Origin: an uncultured Candidatus Saccharibacteria bacterium
GTDB lineage: Bacteria > Patescibacteriota > Doudnabacteria > UBA920
Direction of reading: 5' to 3'
Length of the DNA: 64,000 nucleotides
NCBI GenBank assembly: GCA_964436545.1
Contig: CAYTCJ010000002.1
Span: forward strand, 110,738 to 174,737
Within the stretch, counting starts at the first letter, position 1; each line of letters starts with the position of its first letter. Of the stretch, positions 3,114-33,620 are shown piece by piece. The notes beneath the pieces are model-generated. The model was not told the origin of the DNA and searched no databases. It saw nothing but the letters and a program-made list of their open reading frames with translations. Both the position numbers and the translations under genes were made by a program.

Positions 3114-3219
3114 ATTCCTAAAATTAATAATTTCAATCCTGGTGTCCAAATGCATCCAAATTGTGAACTAAGCGCGGTTTAGTGGCATTCGGATGTTAAT
3201 TCGTAGCATTTGGATCGGA

Positions 3220-3756
3220 TTATACTTGTTTAATAATTTTTCTAAACACTTCAGCTTCCAAACGCACTTTTTCCAAAGCATCGTAAGGATTTTTTTGTTT
3301 AAATTTAAAGTAATCAAAAAAAGTATTGGCCGTAGGCATTTTTTTTAAACCGAAATTTAAAGTAAAAATATAACCCAAAGTCCACAAATCCAAAACATGA
3401 GAATCGTAATCAAAGGCCACCAAAGCTTTTTTAAATGCCATTTTTAAAAATAACAAATTGGTTAAATTGTGGGTGGCCAATAAATACTGCTTGCCAAAAA
3501 CTTTATGAAATTGCTTAATGGCATCGTAAATTTTAGGACTTTTTTTTAAAGTTTCCGGAGGAATCCTTAAAAGTTTACTGTGTTCCCAAATTACATTATC
3601 CAAATAACTTACCCGCACATACGAATTAAAAAAACCTTTTTCCAAAAGATTATCTTTATCTAAAACAATGGCGGATAATTGTAAAATGTTATCCTTATCG
3701 GTATCGTTTCCGGTAGTAATTAATTCAAAAAATAAAATATCTTTAATAAATTTCAT
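3220..3756 (-). CDS. DnaQ-like exonuclease paralog with a degenerate catalytic motif I (FELITTGND instead of D-x-E)
   Basis: Same architecture and same C-terminal motif (YDALEKVRLEAEVF) as the neighbouring exonuclease. The Exo I acidic pair is replaced, so it may be catalytically inactive. Confidence 0.5.
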   Translation of the reverse strand: MKFIKDILFFELITTGNDTDKDNILQLSAIVLDKDNLLEKGFFNSYVRVSYLDNVIWEHSKLLRIPPETLKKSPKIYDAIKQFHKVFGKQYLLATHNLTNLLFLKMAFKKALVAFDYDSHVLDLWTLGYIFTLNFGLKKMPTANTFFDYFKFKQKNPYDALEKVRLEAEVFRKIIKQV

Positions 3757-20720: not shown

Positions 20721-21821
20721 TTATCTGTTTATATTCTGTGAATCTGTGGTCATCTCTAAATATTTTTCCACAAATTCCCCTAACTCACCGTCTAAAACAG
20801 CATCGGGATTGGTAGATTCAAATTCAGTGCGATGATCTTTAACCAACTTATACGGATGAATCACATAACTTCGAATTTGATTGCCCCATTCCGCACTTTT
20901 AAACTCCCCGCGTAATTCTTGTTTTTCTTTTTGCAATTTTTCCTCTTCCAAAGCTTTGAGCTTAGCCATTAAAATTTTCATTGCCACTTGACGATTTTGG
21001 TGTTGACTTCTTTCGTTTTGAATGGAAACCTTAATACCGGTAGGGATATGCGTAATCCGAATGGCACTATAAGTGGTATTTACGCTTTGTCCCCCATGAC
21101 CGCTGGCAGTATTGGCTTCAATTTTTAAATCTTTTTCGTCAATTTTTAATTCTTCCTTTTCTTCTAAAAGGGGGAGTAATTCTAACAGCGCAAAACTGGT
21201 TTCGCGAGTATGCGCCGGATTAAAGGGACTTAAACGCACCAAACGGTGCACTCCGGCTTCGCTTTTAAACAAGCCGTAAGCATACGGGCCTTTTACCTCT
21301 ACCACCGCGGTTTTTACTCCGCCTTGCTCGCCCTTAGCCAATTCCAAAATTTCCGTACTAAAACCTTGTTTTTCCGCATACCTTAAAAACATTCTAAGGA
21401 GCATGCTGGCCCAATCCTGCGCATCCACTCCCCCGGCTCCGCTGTGAATGGAAAATATGGCGTTATGATCATCGTATTTTTTACTCAAGAGTGCCACAAA
21501 CCGATTTTTTTTGTATCTTGCTTCTAATTCATCAATTTGCTGTTTTATGTAATCCAAATCCGTGTGCTCAGATCCGCGTAGCAAATCCGCAACCAGATCC
21601 GCCTCACTCTCAAGCGCGATCCAGAAATCATAAAATTTTTTCAACTGATTATACTCCTGACTCACTTTTTGCGCGTGCTGATTATCTTGCCAAAAATCCG
21701 CCGATTGCATCGCATCTTCCAATTCTAAAAGCCGTTGCTCTTTTTGGGGCAAATTTAAGTGAGATTTCAAATTTAAAATTTCAGATTTAAGCTTGTCTAA
21801 ACGTTTGATTAATTCGTTCAC
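20721..21821 (-). CDS. prfB: Peptide chain release factor 2, encoded in a single frame (no programmed +1 frameshift)
   Basis: SPF motif (RLSPFN) and GGQ motif (GHGGQSVNTT). 366 aa continuous. Confidence 0.85.
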   Translation of the reverse strand: MNELIKRLDKLKSEILNLKSHLNLPQKEQRLLELEDAMQSADFWQDNQHAQKVSQEYNQLKKFYDFWIALESEADLVADLLRGSEHTDLDYIKQQIDELEARYKKNRFVALLSKKYDDHNAIFSIHSGAGGVDAQDWASMLLRMFLRYAEKQGFSTEILELAKGEQGGVKTAVVEVKGPYAYGLFKSEAGVHRLVRLSPFNPAHTRETSFALLELLPLLEEKEELKIDEKDLKIEANTASGHGGQSVNTTYSAIRITHIPTGIKVSIQNERSQHQNRQVAMKILMAKLKALEEEKLQKEKQELRGEFKSAEWGNQIRSYVIHPYKLVKDHRTEFESTNPDAVLDGELGEFVEKYLEMTTDSQNINR

Positions 21822-21989
21822 AAAACAGTGTTAATTGGTCTTAACAATTCTCATTATAGCAAAAATTTAAAAACGGGTATTTTACTACAAAAATAAAAAT
21901 TTGTCAATCCTGCCATTTTTTAAGAGCCTTGTCTTTTTGGTCAGGTATGAAAAAATTATTATAGCAGGGCAAACTATACCCAAACCCTG

Positions 21990-22292
21990 CTACCAGCCCC
22001 AAGGAGGGCAAAATGAAATTTTGGATTTTTTGTATCGGGGTAGAAGTTTTTGGTCTGGCGCTTCGCGCCATGGCCTACGACTTCGGAGCGGAGGGTTGGA
22101 ACACCTTCCGCACCAACGGGGCGGTGGCAAACCACGTGGTTTGCAACTTTTTCCTCGCCCCAGCCGGCCTCTGGGCCGGCGCCATGTTGTGGATGGTCCG
22201 CCGACACTGGCGGTGACCACCACAAACGGCCGAATACAAAAACTCGGCCGTACCTTTAAGCATTATTTCCGCCTGAGAGCGGGTTTTTTATT
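21990..22292 (+). other. GC-rich island of about 300 bp made of consecutive perfect hairpins and ending in an intrinsic terminator (22269-22290)
   Basis: At least seven perfect stems (GGCGC-ttc-GCGCC, GCAAAC-CACGTG-GTTTGC, GCCGGCC-tctg-GGCCGGC, ACGGCCGA-n10-TCGGCCGT and others). All six frames are open. GC content is much higher than the genome. Confidence 0.5.
22013..22216 (+). CDS. Candidate 67-aa two-TM small protein with a strong Shine-Dalgarno sequence (AAGGAGGG, 5-nt spacer). Alternatively part of a structured RNA
   Basis: Strong RBS plus ATG. Two hydrophobic segments. A terminator lies downstream. It sits inside the hairpin-rich GC island. Confidence 0.3.
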   Translation: MKFWIFCIGVEVFGLALRAMAYDFGAEGWNTFRTNGAVANHVVCNFFLAPAGLWAGAMLWMVRRHWR

Positions 22293-22833
22293 TAACTACC
22301 CACAAAGCGCCGGAAAGAAACACATAAATACCTAAAGTATTCAGACAAAAAACTAAAAATAAAAACCGATACTTGGGCATATTACCAATACCCATAAGCC
22401 CAATACCAATTTCATCCGGCAACGGCAAAATAATAAAGATGGCACCTATAATGGGCATTAACCACCGCATCGCCCGAATTTTAAAAATTTTTCCCATTTC
22501 CAATTTAAAAAATTTTCCCGCCAACAACCGCCATTCTGCCCATAATCCGTGCTTTAAAAATCTTAAAATGTAATAATCGCTCACCATGGCCCCCAGCCCG
22601 CCAAAAACACTTAGAGAGAGCAAACTAAACATGTCGGTCATTTCATACAACATAAAAAATCCGGCCGGAGCGGTAAAGAAAGAAGCGGTAAACATACCGG
22701 AGACAAATATCCCCCCTACCCTTAATTCACCCGCCAACCTTGCCAAGGCATGAAAAACACCATAAGCTTCGCCTAAAATGCCCACTCCCAGCAACAGTAA
22801 AAATAATAAAGTATTGGGATAAGTTTTAATCAT
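22288..22833 (-). CDS. Integral membrane protein (181 aa, about 5 TM)
   Basis: Hydrophobic throughout. No family recognised. Overlaps the ATPase gene start by 8 nt. Confidence 0.5.
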   Translation of the reverse strand: MIKTYPNTLLFLLLLGVGILGEAYGVFHALARLAGELRVGGIFVSGMFTASFFTAPAGFFMLYEMTDMFSLLSLSVFGGLGAMVSDYYILRFLKHGLWAEWRLLAGKFFKLEMGKIFKIRAMRWLMPIIGAIFIILPLPDEIGIGLMGIGNMPKYRFLFLVFCLNTLGIYVFLSGALWVVK

Positions 22834-25525
22834 GCAATAATTTTTGGTTTAAGATTTTTTTGGTAATTTCCAAAATGGGAATAATTGTAGAGGAAATTAA
22901 AACCAACCCCATCCAAGTCTGGCCCTCTAAGCGGGTGGTGGAAAAAATCGTCTGAAAACCGCTTAAGTGCGTAAGGCTCCATAAAAACGGCAACTGCACA
23001 AGAATAGACAAGTTTAACCACTGATTATTGAAAACTCCTTGAAAAAATCCCTCTCGGTCATTTTTTAAAGCCAAAGCTTTAAATAGTTGAATAAGAATTA
23101 AAGACACAAACGTGGCTGTGCCCGCATACTCTAAATTGTCGGTAAATTTCCAAAAATATAAAAAGATAAAAATATTTAACACCGTGGTCCACACGGCAGC
23201 AACCAACATATAAACTAAAGCGCGAGTGTTAAAAATGCCGGCCTGAGGATTTCTGGGTTTTTCCGACATAACACTCAAACTGCCCTTTTCCGCAGACAAA
23301 GCCAAAGCCGGCGGACCGTCGGAAGCCAAATTCACAAATAAAATTTGCACCGAAGTTAAAGGTAAAGGCCAACCCAATACCACAGCCAAAGCAATTAACA
23401 CCACTTCACCCACATGGGCGGATAACAAATAAGTTAAATATTTACGAATATTGCCAAAAATTATTCGCCCCTGCTCCACGGCGGAAACAATGGTGGCAAA
23501 ATTGTCATCTAGTAAAGTAATCGCTGCCGATTCTTTAGAGACATCTGTCCCTTTTATGCCCATAGCCACTCCAATATCCGCTTGTTTTAAGGCGGGCGCA
23601 TCATTTACCCCATCGCCGGTCATAGCCACCACTTCTCCCTGTTTTTGCAACACGCTGACAATTTTCAATTTATCTTCCGGTGAAACCCGAGCAAAAATAT
23701 TGGTACGTTTTAAAACCACTTCCAATTCTTTTGCCGGCATATGCATTAATTCTTTACCGCTTACAACCGTGTCGGTTTCTGTAATAATCCCTAATTCCAA
23801 ACCAATGGCTTTGGCAGTTTGCGGATGGTCGCCGGTAATCATAATTACCCGAATACCGGCATTTTTACACACCGCCACCGCTGTCTTGGCTTCGGGTCTT
23901 AAAGTATCCGCCATAGCCACCAAACCTAAAAATTCCAAATTATGGGGCGTGGCTTTTAAATCTTTTAAAGTATGATTTTTAGCCAAAGCAATCACTCGCC
24001 TGCCGGCTTGAGCGGATTTTTCAGTTGCCTGCAAAAATTCTTGTTTGTGCTGATCGGAAAACTTTATTGGTGAGCCCTGACTGTTATAAATATAATCGCA
24101 CATTTCCAAAACCGCCTCTACCGCGCCTTTCACATAGACGGTTTGGCCTTGAGCTGAAGCATGCAAAGTCGCCATATATTTTTTTTCCGAGGTAAAGGGA
24201 ATTTCTTCCAAACGAGGAAATTGACTAACTAAATCTTCCTTACTGATTTTTGCTTTTCGGCCGGCAACAATAATGGCCCCTTCTGTGGCATCCCCCATTA
24301 CCTGCCATTGGTTATCCGCAAAAACCAAATCGGCATCGGCACACAAACAACCAGCCACTAACAATTGGGTTAAATCGTCGGGTAAAATTGTGACAACATT
24401 TTTATGATAAAAAATTTCACCTTCCGGACTAAAGCCGGCTCCGGCAAACACATACTCCCCTTGGGGGGTTATTACACTTTTAACTGTCATTTCGTCTTTG
24501 GTTAGGGTGCCGGTTTTATCGGTGCAAATTACCGAAGTACAACCCAAAGTTTCCACCACAGGCAAACTTTTGGTTAAAGCGTGTTTTTTGGCAATCTTCG
24601 CCGCTCCTAAAGCTAAAGATACGCTCACGACCGCCACCAAAGCCTCGGGTACCACTGCTACGGCCAAAGAGAGCCCAAACAAAAACATTTGCGTTAAAGA
24701 TTGCTCGTGCCAGACACCCAACAACACAATTAGACTTACCACCACCAGAGCCAAAATCCCAAGTTTCTTACCTAAACTGTCTAAATTTTTTTGCAAAGGC
24801 GTTTTTTCCGGATTCACCCTCTTTAGCATACCGGCAATTTTGCCAATTTCCGTATTCATGCCTGTGGCCACCACCAAACCCACCCCCCGACCATATATAG
24901 CCAAAGTCCCGGCAAAAACTAAATTAGTTCTGTCTGCCAAAGGAGTTTCGGGACTATGCACTCTGCCTGCATTTTTTTCTGCCGGCACCGACTCCCCGGT
25001 AAGCATGGCCTCCTCCACCTGCAAATTATAACTTTCTACTAAACGACAATCGGCATTTAACCGATTCCCCGCGGTAATTATCAATAAATCACCCGGAACA
25101 ATTTGGGTAGATAAAATTTCTTCGGTCCTCCCCTCGCGGATCACTAAACTTTTCGGCACAGCAAATTTTTTTAAGCCCGCTAAAGATTTTTCGGCTTTAT
25201 ATTCTTGAATCAAACCTAAAACCGCGGAAGCCAAAACAATCGTCATAATAGCGCCCATTTCCACCCAATGCCCCAACACCCCCGACAAAATACTTGCCAA
25301 AATTAAAATAATCACCAAAATATTTTTAAATTGCTGAAAAAATATTTTAGCCAAGCTTATGGGTTTTTTCGCTTCAATTTCATTGGGTCCCCATTTTAGC
25401 CATCGCTCACAAGCCACGGTCTTACTTAAGCCCGAACTTTTATGGGAAGCCAAAGCTTTTACAGCTTCCTCAACCGATAAATTATGCCAGAATTCATTCT
25501 TCATACTACTGATTATTTTAGCCAT
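22826..25525 (-). CDS. P-type cation-transporting ATPase (type IIA Ca2+/Mg2+-like)
   Basis: DKTGTLT phosphorylation motif, TGDGVNDAPAL hinge, N-terminal cation-ATPase domain. 899 aa with 10 predicted TMs. Confidence 0.9.
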   Translation of the reverse strand: MAKIISSMKNEFWHNLSVEEAVKALASHKSSGLSKTVACERWLKWGPNEIEAKKPISLAKIFFQQFKNILVIILILASILSGVLGHWVEMGAIMTIVLASAVLGLIQEYKAEKSLAGLKKFAVPKSLVIREGRTEEILSTQIVPGDLLIITAGNRLNADCRLVESYNLQVEEAMLTGESVPAEKNAGRVHSPETPLADRTNLVFAGTLAIYGRGVGLVVATGMNTEIGKIAGMLKRVNPEKTPLQKNLDSLGKKLGILALVVVSLIVLLGVWHEQSLTQMFLFGLSLAVAVVPEALVAVVSVSLALGAAKIAKKHALTKSLPVVETLGCTSVICTDKTGTLTKDEMTVKSVITPQGEYVFAGAGFSPEGEIFYHKNVVTILPDDLTQLLVAGCLCADADLVFADNQWQVMGDATEGAIIVAGRKAKISKEDLVSQFPRLEEIPFTSEKKYMATLHASAQGQTVYVKGAVEAVLEMCDYIYNSQGSPIKFSDQHKQEFLQATEKSAQAGRRVIALAKNHTLKDLKATPHNLEFLGLVAMADTLRPEAKTAVAVCKNAGIRVIMITGDHPQTAKAIGLELGIITETDTVVSGKELMHMPAKELEVVLKRTNIFARVSPEDKLKIVSVLQKQGEVVAMTGDGVNDAPALKQADIGVAMGIKGTDVSKESAAITLLDDNFATIVSAVEQGRIIFGNIRKYLTYLLSAHVGEVVLIALAVVLGWPLPLTSVQILFVNLASDGPPALALSAEKGSLSVMSEKPRNPQAGIFNTRALVYMLVAAVWTTVLNIFIFLYFWKFTDNLEYAGTATFVSLILIQLFKALALKNDREGFFQGVFNNQWLNLSILVQLPFLWSLTHLSGFQTIFSTTRLEGQTWMGLVLISSTIIPILEITKKILNQKLLHD

Positions 25526-31945: not shown

Positions 31946-32168
31946 AATTTTTTAATCCCCCCTCTTAGGGTAAGAGGGGGCTAGGGGGTGATATTGTTTA
32001 ATTCCAACCCTAAAATAATACACGAAAAAACCTTTCTTGACAAAATTTTCTCTGTGGATTAAAATAACCTAAATTATGAAATTCCAAAACCTTTCCAGCA
32101 TTATTAGCATTATTATTCCTCGCTTCAGGCAGTGGAAGAGTTTTTAATGCTTTAAATTAAATTCTCTG

Positions 32169-32200
32169 AAATCCCTGCCGTTAGGCAGGGATTTTTATTT
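32169..32200 (+). terminator. Intrinsic terminator (AAATCCCTGCC-gtta-GGCAGGGATTTTTATTT)
   Basis: Perfect stem plus T-tract inside a 1.7-kb region with no coding sequence. Confidence 0.6.
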
Positions 32201-32289
32201 TTATGGCTATATCATAAAAAAACAATCCATTAGTCCTATTGGTCATATAAATCTTATAAGACCTATATGACTTATATGACACAAACAAC

Positions 32290-32811
32290 CTTTAGACCGC
32301 CACCCCTTGCCCCCGAAGACTCGGGCGCAGAGAACATCGGCCTAAAAGGCCACTAAAAGGAGGATTTATGTTGGTGTTTCTGAAGATGGATGGGTACGTG
32401 AGTACCCAGGCGGGCCTCAATGCCCTCCAGGCCCAAGGGCTCCGGCCTGCGGGTCGCCAAGAAATCAGCGTCGCCCTAGACATGGGCGACAATGAAAAAA
32501 ACACTTATATGGTTTTTGCCAGACAGAAGGACTGGCAAACATCCTGCCCAGAGGCGTCAATCCGCCAATGGGAACCTACGCCGATCACAACGTGCCCGGT
32601 ATTGTACCGGGTTTGGATGGGAAATCCAGAGCCCCGAGAAATCCGGGAAATGTCGGTGGTGGGCGTGTGGCACGACCCCATATTTGTTGGGGTCAAGGAT
32701 GACTAACCGCGCGGGGAGGGGTGCAGAAAGATTTTGTATTTATAGGCCTTAAAACAGCCAACTAAAGCAAATTCTCTCTGCCCCCTCCCCGCAGAAAATT
32801 CTTTTTTTATC
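32290..32811 (+). other. GC-rich island of about 520 bp. Candidate structured RNA and/or foreign small gene
   Basis: GC content far above the flanks. Three or more frames are open on both strands. Multiple perfect hairpins. A 15-bp long-range stem GCGGGGAGGGGTGCAG / CTGCCCCCTCCCCGC (32710-32793) is followed by a T-run. Confidence 0.4.
32368..32706 (+). CDS. Candidate 112-aa ORF with a strong Shine-Dalgarno sequence (AAAGGAGGA, 4-nt spacer). May be spurious within a structured RNA
   Basis: Strong RBS plus ATG. GC-rich codons unlike the host genome. No recognisable domain. Confidence 0.25.
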   Translation: MLVFLKMDGYVSTQAGLNALQAQGLRPAGRQEISVALDMGDNEKNTYMVFARQKDWQTSCPEASIRQWEPTPITTCPVLYRVWMGNPEPREIREMSVVGVWHDPIFVGVKDD

Positions 32812-33012
32812 TTCTACCTTTTGACTCTAATTTTGCAGATATTATCCAACTATGGTATGGTATGAATACCTTAAACTTAGCATTCGGATTTGATTATTAC
32901 TTTTACTAATTAAATCCGAGTGCTAAGGGACCTAGCACTATTCAGCGAAGCCACAGGGTTTCCGGTTAGCCACTCTCCTCCAGCTAACCTGCTTAATAGC
33001 CCCCTGTGTGCC

Positions 33013-33042
33013 AAAAAAAATGGGGCGCTTACCGGTGCCCCA
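33013..33042 (-). terminator. Minus-strand intrinsic terminator (TGGGGCACCGGTAAGCGCCCCA + T8)
   Basis: Stem TGGGGC/GCCCCA with a 10-nt loop, followed on the minus strand by TTTTTTTT. Confidence 0.5.
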
Positions 33043-33184
33043 CTCTCAACTTTTGACAAAATTATTAAAATCCTATAAACTTTTTCTATGAAGCGATTAC
33101 AAACCAACTTAAGCCTTAACCTCCTTACCCTTACATACTTAAGGCGTAATTTGGTTTAGTTTTCAGTTAATACTTCTCTTTACC

Positions 33185-33216
33185 AAACCCCCGCCTTAAG
33201 GCGGGGGTTTTTTTAT
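33185..33216 (+). terminator. Plus-strand intrinsic terminator (AAACCCCCGCCTTAAGGCGGGGGTTTTTTT)
   Basis: Perfect 8-bp GC stem plus T7. The upstream ACUUAAGGCG (33139-33148) can pair with the 5' arm, giving an antiterminator-like alternative. Confidence 0.65.
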
Positions 33217-33425
33217 TTTACTGTAAACAGTAAAATAACCCTTCGTAGTCCCGCCATAGCGGGACGAAGTAGGGTAAATGATTTACCAAAGGAGGAAAAG
33301 TTAGTTGGTGGTCAGATTTTAGATTTTTAATTAAAAATGTTGGCTTTAAAATCAAATTTTAGGTTCTCCACAGAGTCGAACACTAAAATGATAAAAGTCT
33401 AAAATATGACCACCCAACAACAACC

Positions 33426-33460
33426 CAAAAAAATTTCTTCGGGCTTTAAGCCCGAAGACG
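33426..33460 (-). terminator. Minus-strand intrinsic terminator (CTTCGGGCTTAAAGCCCGAAG + T7)
   Basis: Perfect 8-bp stem followed on the minus strand by AAATTTTTTT. A second terminator about 115 nt downstream of the rplA terminator, delimiting a short GC-rich transcript candidate. Confidence 0.5.
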
Positions 33461-33521
33461 TATACATTCCCCGACAGGGGGATCCAGGTGTCCCCTGGCC
33501 AACCCTGTGGAACCGCCCTGT

Positions 33522-33547
33522 CCGGCGAGCCCCCGCTCGCCGGTTTT
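33522..33547 (+). terminator. Plus-strand hairpin plus T-run (CCGGCGAGC-cccc-GCTCGCCGG-TTTTT)
   Basis: Perfect 9-bp stem plus T5. Confidence 0.5.
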
Positions 33548-33573
33548 TCTTTTTATTAAAATGCCAAAAACAT

Positions 33574-33612
33574 GAAGACGGACTTCTGGGATTTTCCCAG
33601 AGGTCCGTCTTC
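33574..33612 (-). terminator. Terminator hairpin immediately downstream of rplA
   Basis: GAAGACGGACCTCTGGG-aaaat-CCCAGAAGTCCGTCTTC on the minus strand, followed by a U-rich tract. Confidence 0.55.
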
Positions 33613-33620
33613 AGATGGAC

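Follow-up and report, generated by a model that had tools for sequence, protein, structure and literature searches.

We investigated an island rich in guanine plus cytosine (GC) in a 64-kb stretch of contig CAYTCJ010000002.1 (assembly GCA_964436545.1, positions 110738 to 174737 of the forward strand), from an uncultured Candidatus Saccharibacteria bacterium that GTDB places in the Doudnabacteria. This stretch of 64,000 nucleotides (nt) is called the window below, and all coordinates refer to it. The island, at positions 21962-22293, carries a small open reading frame (ORF) for 67 amino acids (aa), which an earlier note, made from the sequence alone, had described as either a small membrane protein gene or a structured RNA. 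Comparison with related loci points to an orphan small membrane-protein gene, and the island is very likely a protein-coding gene under purifying selection rather than a pure RNA. Its messenger RNA (mRNA) has a higher GC content and a more stable fold than either the protein sequence or the codon set of the gene would need.

The island is the GC maximum of the window. Over 200 nt, the GC content reaches 0.575 in the island versus about 0.30-0.45 in the flanks, and over 150 nt it peaks at 0.67 at position 22064, the highest value in the window (mean 0.386, standard deviation (s.d.) 0.065). The + strand RNA of 21960-22295 folds with -153.3 kcal/mol, as compared with -113.6 ± 5.4 kcal/mol for dinucleotide shuffles (z = -7.4; none of 100 shuffles folds as well), and the - strand fold of the island is weaker (z = -5.6). 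The description of the island as GC-rich and built of hairpins was therefore correct, and so was the proposal that it ends in an intrinsic terminator. The minimum-free-energy (MFE) fold consists of eight local stem-loops and this terminator. The features of the island are as follows.

21929-21956, + strand: candidate weak sigma-70-like promoter, TTGTCT, 16-nt spacer and TG-n-AAAAAT (extended -10), with 8 of 12 matches in a relaxed scan
21962-21992, + strand: 5' stem-loop UAGCAGGG / CCCUGCUA, 8 bp, in the MFE fold, at the predicted 5' end of the transcript
22001-22008, + strand: Shine-Dalgarno (SD) sequence AAGGAGGG, 4-5 nt ahead of the ATG
22013-22216, + strand: 67-aa ORF for a predicted two-helix membrane protein (other alleles 66, 64 or 67 aa)
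22052-22075, + strand: hairpin 1, core GGCGC-UUC-GCGCC, in the MFE fold, inside the ORF
22088-22111, + strand: hairpin 2, 9 bp, inside the ORF
22118-22161, + strand: hairpin 3, outer stem GGGGCG/CGCCCC around the perfect 18-nt palindrome GCAAACCACGUGGUUUGC (22127-22144)
22163-22180, + strand: hairpin 4, GCCGGCC-UCUG-GGCCGGC, 7 bp, inside the ORF
22189-22223, + strand: hairpin 5, over the end of the coding sequence and the TGA stop (22214-22216)
22226-22251, + strand: hairpin ACGGCCGA / UCGGCCGU of the 3' untranslated region (3' UTR), 8 bp, with an invariant stem and a variable loop
22268-22293, + strand: intrinsic terminator of the small gene, a GC-rich stem (22268-22283) followed by UUUUUUAUUU (six T)

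Evidence for a coding gene

If the island were a non-coding structured RNA, with the ORF and its SD sequence as chance features, the strong + strand fold and the dedicated terminator would follow naturally, and in AT-rich genomes an RNA gene is the classic explanation for a GC-rich island. The presence of long open frames in all six frames would also fit. We compared the window with nine further contigs from metagenomes or metagenome-assembled genomes (MAGs). These ten loci (L numbers below) yielded seven distinct island sequences (haplotypes) and six protein alleles. Ratios of nonsynonymous to synonymous substitution rates (dN/dS) were calculated by the Nei-Gojobori method for all six pairs, the folds of four haplotypes were compared with shuffled sequences, and base pairs were counted in a six-sequence alignment.

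The variation among the haplotypes follows the reading frame. Variable sites are distributed over codon positions 1, 2 and 3 as 18, 7 and 26 (seven haplotypes; chi-square p = 0.0047), and dN/dS lies between 0.25 and 0.36 in all six pairs. The other frames fail this periodicity, since in the +2 and antisense frames codon position 3 or 1 would be the one that varies least. Both indels within the ORF are multiples of three (3 nt in the L004 group and 9 nt in L003), while those outside it measure 1 nt (in the 5' hairpin loop, the SD spacer and the 3' loop) or 4 nt (right after the stop codon). The position of the stop codon is constant across the seven haplotypes, with TGA replaced by TAA in L010, and the L004 group retains the SD sequence and ATG despite a rearranged 5' end. 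Replacements in the first predicted helix exchange one hydrophobic residue for another. Gene callers predicted the small ORF on nine independent contigs.

Some of the stem pairs, on the other hand, are broken, in several cases by changes that leave the protein unaltered or exchange similar residues. Arg63 becomes Lys through CGC to AAA, where all three bases change, the charge stays and the inner stem of hairpin 5 is lost. Hairpin 5 is the least conserved helix, with 5 of its 16 pairs broken in some haplotypes. Hairpin 1 loses one pair in L004 and L011 through a synonymous change of CGC to CGA, and hairpin 2 is removed altogether in L003 by the in-frame 9-nt deletion. The palindrome of hairpin 3 is disrupted by Val to Ala in L003 and by Val to Met in L010, and its outer stem is opened by a synonymous change of GCG to GCA. 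The single change in hairpin 4, a synonymous GCC to GCT, turns a G-C pair into G-U. The 5' stem-loop keeps seven of its eight pairs invariant, the remaining one being broken in some haplotypes, and the terminator is kept in all haplotypes. Hairpin 2 is the sole helix with a compensatory change (U-A to C-G), along with a change from G-U to A-U. Over 91 pairs, 72 never vary, 13 are broken in at least one haplotype and 7 variable pairs are still paired. RNAalifold found a change on both sides in only one of the 91 pairs, with an unfavourable covariation term of +2.4. The covariation score was matched in 49 of 500 shuffles, in an alignment whose mean column identity of about 85% is too close for power.

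We then searched for known RNAs, a check that the earlier note had proposed. Rfam 15 gave no match at the gathering score in the whole window, and the five matches at E ≤ 10 in 21800-22400 are sub-threshold chance matches (best 22 bits versus a cut-off of 65). ARAGORN detected no transfer RNA or transfer-messenger RNA in the window. As for the open frames, the earlier statement that all six are open is about right, with ORFs of 62-144 aa in all six, but three off-frame stops do lie within the span of the small ORF. Synonymous shuffles keep the same number of stops (2.98 ± 0.93), as compared with 12.4 ± 2.9 after recoding with host codon usage, so the six open frames are due to the GC-rich codon choice.

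These results bear on both halves of the earlier question. The test put forward there, whether homologues preserve the protein or the stems, came out in favour of a gene when it was applied to the haplotypes. The reading as a small membrane protein gene is supported by the codon periodicity, dN/dS below one, in-frame indels and the conserved start, stop and SD sequence. A non-coding RNA with a chance SD sequence did not hold up. No Rfam family was matched, covariation did not exceed controls, about 13 stem pairs are broken, and the indels keep the frame within the ORF only. We regard this explanation as extremely improbable.

The candidate promoter motif is kept in all haplotypes that cover this stretch, and would put the transcription start at about 21962, the foot of the 5' stem-loop. 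The earlier claim of a perfect SD sequence and an ATG holds for both elements (ATG at 22013), but the spacer is 4 nt (CAAA) and not 5 nt. The SD sequence is conserved in the seven haplotypes in spite of nearby indels, and its GGG sits in a 4-bp hairpin (GCCC/GGGC, 21996-22009). The first ten codons have 30% GC and are unpaired in the predicted fold; the remaining codons have 53-77% GC and are 53-83% paired. The reported scarcity of SD sequences in the window was confirmed, as an SD-like core at -20 to -4 precedes 4 of the 65 long ORFs (about 6%), and the window contains just two strong SD-to-ORF arrangements. Most translation initiation in the host organism thus appears to be SD-independent, as judged from these upstream sequences.

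The small protein, its alleles and its origin

The earlier description of the product as having two hydrophobic helices agrees with both predictions that we made. The Kyte-Doolittle maxima over 19 residues are 1.76 (residues 3-21) and 1.54 (residues 42-60), and an AlphaFold2 model from a shallow alignment, of low confidence (predicted local distance difference test (pLDDT) score 66, predicted template modelling score 0.35), shows a helix-turn-helix with helices at residues 2-32 and 36-66. By the positive-inside rule, the lysine of the N-terminal MK and the basic tail RRHWR would both be cytoplasmic, giving a predicted N-in/C-in topology. The protein has 66-67 residues, and 64 in L003. Residues C7, E11 and R18 of helix 1, the junction Y22-D23-F24-G25, and N40, H41, C44 and N45 of helix 2 are invariant, as is the segment A49-P-A-G-L-W-A-G-A57. 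In the modelled helices, these residues would form a polar or ionisable face inside the membrane and a small-xxx-small packing motif (A51 G52 xx A55 G56). Their pattern suggests self-association or binding to a partner membrane protein as the most economical reading.

Pfam, NCBIfam, PHROGs, PADLOC and PDB contain no relative of the small protein. Sub-threshold matches to a photosystem II CP47 helix (Pfam, NCBIfam, PHROGs and PADLOC; E about 0.006-0.008) were taken as chance similarity between helices, and a PDB sequence search with the six-allele profile gave nothing at E < 0.27. As far as these and the Rfam searches reach, the small protein and its RNA appear to belong to no described protein or RNA family. 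A literature search on small membrane proteins in Patescibacteria returned nothing relevant.

Among about 5.8 billion proteins, the 67-aa peptide has only two other clusters. A profile hidden Markov model search of 1.84 billion representatives returned only the cluster of the query itself and weak, non-credible matches. The latter (P0004-P0006) are multi-stretch matches to long repetitive proteins and were judged spurious. P0005 (384 aa) contains five tandem 69-aa repeats, each weakly matching residues 13-55 (37% identity, including APAG-WA). This protein resembles a tandem repeat of DNA that has been translated, and kinship with the small protein is doubtful. A 25-aa stretch YDSYSENPADFTRNGIIANHVVCNF in the metagenome contig Ga0207828_101250 (L005, 1673-1747) shows 56% identity to residues 22-46. 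It was rejected as a homologue because it is a pattern-selected fragment from a non-coding stretch of an unrelated low-GC contig, and the resemblance is probably a chance match. The Logan read-level assembly is the only record of the exact 67-aa sequence, which the NCBI entry for this genome does not provide.

The GTDB species representatives contain one locus (L004), in a MAG labelled uncultured Candidatus Saccharibacteria; close prfB relatives carry the labels Doudnabacteria or Patescibacteria. Six more contigs with the small ORF (L006-L011) were reached through the closest prfB homologues. All ten loci share the gene order prfB, small ORF, 181-aa membrane protein and P-type ATPase. At this site, the outgroups L012-L015 (prfB identity 81%) have neither the small ORF nor the ATPase and 181-aa genes. 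All recovered members of one narrow clade of the Patescibacteria, or Candidate Phyla Radiation (CPR), thus have the small gene, and the nearest outgroups lack it. A GC-rich segment that lies upstream of prfB in L012 and L013 was also considered, but its 158-aa ORF is of another kind, with no BLAST similarity. In L012, this insert (3130-3700) reaches a GC content of 0.59, and in L013 an rve-type transposase is its neighbour. This position ahead of prfB is possibly a hotspot of insertion.

The genes that flank the small ORF in the window include ftsX, ftsE, prfB, the 181-aa membrane protein, the P-type ATPase and tmk. The closest are as follows.

20721-21821, - strand: prfB, with PCRF and RF-1 domains
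22288-22833, - strand: 181-aa orphan membrane protein, the convergent neighbour and last gene of the P-type ATPase operon
22826-25525, - strand: P-type ATPase, PMR1/SERCA-type (Ca-type), in the operon that includes the 181-aa gene

The 181-aa gene always co-occurs with the small ORF in the recovered loci. Its product has no match in Pfam or NCBIfam and forms a single 90% cluster among the same 5.8 billion proteins, with the JGI label 'YpjA'-like. This neighbour is thus an orphan too and gives no functional lead. UUUGUGG follows the 3' UTR hairpin of the small gene on the - strand, where this hairpin may terminate the convergent ATPase/181-aa operon. In a consensus scan, the only promoter-like sites on the - strand near the island are those of prfB, at 21907-21879 and 21799.

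We then compared the small ORF with its flanks in pairs of strains. L006 and L010 differ at 29 of 201 positions in the ORF versus 6 of 797 in the two 400-nt flanks (p = 6e-16). The corresponding counts are 41 of 192 versus 38 of 792 for L003 and L006 (p = 1e-11), and 31 of 195 versus 47 of 793 for the window and L003 (p = 2e-5). Between L002 and L003, the synonymous divergence (dS) is 0.05 in the 181-aa gene and 0.53 in the small ORF. The small ORF is thus a sharp divergence peak between near-identical strains, and alleles this old within young flanks suggest that balancing selection, or the repeated import of alleles, is at work. The region from prfB to the ATPase (21200-24000; compared with L003, L004, L006 and L010) is a recombination mosaic, in which the divergence between strains switches between 0-2% and 15-34% from one block of a few hundred bases to the next, as at 22908-23057 (the C-terminal part of the ATPase) and at 23658-23799.

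The earlier note had suggested horizontal acquisition. A recent foreign gene would carry GC-rich codons and a strong SD sequence that have not yet been ameliorated from a higher-GC, SD-using donor, and the hairpins would be a by-product. In agreement with this, the composition is atypical for the host (GC content at third codon positions (GC3) 0.73 versus 0.37), the SD sequence is strong where such sequences are rare, and the gene is absent from the nearest outgroups. A second ORF in the window (32368-32706; GC3 0.66, SD-led) has the same pair of signatures. However, no donor homologue was found among about 5.8 and 1.8 billion proteins, GTDB, JGI metagenomes, viral contigs, phage genomes and plasmids. 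No transposase or integrase is found among the window ORFs at the locus, and there is no mobile-element context. The ATPase and 181-aa genes that arrived together with the small gene are host-like (GC3 0.42), as are its own first ten codons. Composition alone is also insufficient for the fold, which exceeds both the dinucleotide shuffles and the synonymous shuffles (z = -2.4 to -4.7). We consider a recent foreign origin unlikely; horizontal transfer of the small ORF is possible but unsupported.

The second ORF lies beside rplA in a 1.7-kb segment without a long ORF (31946-33620). This segment contains the second-highest GC island of the window (32269-32795, peak 0.61). The ORF (32368-32706, + strand, 112 aa) has AAGGAGGA ahead of its ATG, and the window has no further strong SD-to-ORF pair besides this one and the small ORF. 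It gave no Pfam match, no Rfam match above the gathering score and no phage or viral homologue, and the same Logan sample is the sole record of its exact protein sequence. Two short units in the same segment (about 32040-32200 and about 33055-33215) each have a strong intrinsic terminator (AATCCCTGCC...GGCAGGGATTTTT and CCCCCGCC...GGCGGGGGTTTTTTT, respectively), together with a TTGACA-type promoter and either a small ORF or a stretch resembling a leader. In Rfam searches, they gave only sub-threshold matches resembling leaders or small RNAs (31.7 and 30.6 bits versus a cut-off of 55).

Codon choice and mRNA structure

The codon usage of the small ORF was rightly described as GC-rich and unlike that of the host genes. 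Its GC3 of 0.73 compares with a mean of 0.37 (s.d. 0.046, maximum 0.44) for 57 window genes, and its C/(C+T) ratio in two-fold codons is 0.71 versus 0.24. This bias is accompanied by excess structure. The native ORF folds with -96 kcal/mol, as compared with -62 ± 6 kcal/mol after recoding with host usage (48% GC), a difference of about 6 s.d. All four haplotypes examined are also more stable than their synonymous-codon shuffles (z = -3.4, -4.7, -2.4 and -2.8). The RNA structure is thus beyond chance, and exceeds what the protein sequence and the codon set need. At third codon positions, variation affects 11 of the 39 paired and 15 of the 24 unpaired sites (p = 0.009), where the site classes are taken from the fold of the window sequence itself and the haplotypes are few and recombinant. 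A secondary RNA-level constraint on top of the coding constraint is likely.

Taking these results together, we consider the island likely to be a monocistronic + strand gene (about 21962-22290, some 330 nt) for a lineage-restricted two-helix protein of 66-67 residues, with a structured and stable mRNA. The strong SD sequence and the AT-rich, unpaired first ten codons would allow efficient initiation in an SD-poor genome. The 5' stem-loop, the chain of hairpins over codons 11-67, the 3' UTR hairpin and the terminator would protect the transcript from nucleases, and such a long-lived mRNA could yield an abundant small membrane protein. This protein may pack against itself or against a partner, for which the co-inherited 181-aa protein and the adjoining Ca-type P-type ATPase are candidates.

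Several observations weigh against this interpretation. The ribosomal-protein genes in the window have a GC3 of only 0.41-0.42, and therefore high expression alone fails to explain the codon bias. The stabilising role of the hairpins is one that we infer only. Covariation does not exceed the controls, and only about one in three of the variable stem pairs stays paired, close to what neutrality predicts. In the hydropathy profile, the second segment is a borderline case (1.54), and the model is of low confidence (pLDDT 66). In a stricter consensus scan no + strand promoter is found, the weak candidate being seen in the relaxed scan only. The homologues come from a single clade with 75-84% protein identity, so that the statistics rest on few, partly recombinant lineages, and this clade is so narrow that the synteny with the ATPase operon is uninformative.

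The transcript might instead have two functions, coding for the small protein and acting as a structured regulatory RNA. The fold stability above synonymous shuffles in four of four haplotypes and above host-usage recoding would be expected in this case, as would the reduced synonymous-site variation within stems and the 3' UTR hairpin with its invariant stem and variable loop. A GC3 that lies 8 s.d. over the genome mean with no donor found points in the same direction. On the other hand, covariation is seen in one pair only, substitutions in stems disrupt pairs at the neutral rate, and hairpin 2 is wholly deleted in L003. No target or partner has been identified, and none was searched for. 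Selection on mRNA stability accounts for the same data without a second function. We judge a dual-function RNA to be quite unlikely.

A joint reading would combine two layers of selection, for coding and for an RNA function of its own, in a small class of GC-rich, SD-led genes that includes the ORF at 32368-32706, with old divergent alleles. These alleles would be maintained by balancing or frequency-dependent selection, as for a membrane protein that faces a host, a phage or a competitor. We hold this combination to be rather unlikely. In a related scenario, the ORF would have emerged de novo within a structured RNA of high GC content. Such a birth would explain both the absence of homologues elsewhere and the RNA-like composition.

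With this locus, a CPR/Patescibacteria lineage gains an orphan small membrane protein that had not been annotated. To our knowledge, the small proteins of these bacteria are almost unexplored. If both the RNA-level constraint and the hyper-divergence of its alleles are real, the gene offers a compact model for codon choice that builds mRNA structure, and for the way in which a small membrane protein could come under diversifying pressure in episymbionts with reduced genomes. As the family is tiny, its general importance is moderate.

Comparison with known systems

A common screening rule takes a GC-rich hairpin island in an AT-rich genome as an RNA gene. The island resembles the targets of this rule in being the sharpest GC peak of a stretch with 38.6% GC and in having a strong predicted fold. 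Unlike them, it is protein-coding, and hence a false positive for the rule and a counter-example to it, for which comparative codon analysis sufficed.

A toxin or holin-like peptide had also been suggested earlier. In this reading, the product would damage membranes, either as a type I toxin or as a holin-like pore former, and its heavily folded mRNA would restrain translation. Like the type I toxins of hok/sok, tisB/istR and fst, the small gene encodes a small hydrophobic membrane peptide, has a compact and structured mRNA, as the hok-type mRNAs do, and is a lineage-restricted orphan. The GGG of the SD sequence lies within a 4-bp hairpin, read-through from the convergent operon could provide an antisense RNA, and the ORF is a hotspot of strain divergence, as conflict genes often are. 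However, a consensus scan found no antisense promoter in or beside the island (non-canonical promoters or read-through would escape it), and no antitoxin RNA was found. In the predicted fold, the AT-rich start region is unpaired and the SD sequence barely occluded, which would be the opposite of type I toxin mRNAs. With two helices and 67 aa, the protein is also larger than most such toxins.

The likeness to class II holins and pinholins (for example, S68 of phage 21) lies in the size (65-95 aa), the two transmembrane helices, the N-in/C-in topology and the basic C-terminus, all of these beyond the size being predicted for the small protein. In contrast to the holins, it has no phage genes, adjacent endolysin, lysis cassette or dual-start motif. 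The gene sits among housekeeping genes (ftsE, ftsX and prfB, along with the ATPase) and is fixed in the clade. PHROGs and PADLOC gave no match above noise (best PHROGs E = 0.17, function unknown), and phages, plasmids and viral contigs contain no homologue. The toxin or holin proposal was thus not supported, and we regard it as very unlikely.

Dual-function small RNAs, such as RNAIII/hld of Staphylococcus aureus, SgrS/SgrT and SR1/SR1P of Bacillus subtilis, are similar in that a structured RNA of a few hundred nt contains a small ORF, and here an RNA-level constraint appears on top of the coding constraint. They differ in that their ORF is minor and their pairing regions are defined, whereas the ORF makes up about 60% of the transcript here and the covariation does not exceed that of the controls.

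A further parallel is the lpp mRNA of Escherichia coli, which encodes the murein lipoprotein (78 aa) and is a classic short and very stable mRNA. The two differ in several respects. They have no sequence relationship, Lpp is a secreted lipoprotein whereas the small protein is a predicted two-helix integral membrane protein, and the departure of GC3 from the host is far more extreme in the small gene. Like the lpp mRNA, the predicted transcript of the small gene is monocistronic with about 320-330 nt, encodes a small envelope protein (67 versus 78 aa), has most of its length folded into a chain of hairpins and ends in an intrinsic terminator. The proposed logic would also be the same, with structure giving a long half-life and thereby an abundant small protein. 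By this analogy, the locus most resembles a stable, structured small-protein mRNA of the lpp type.

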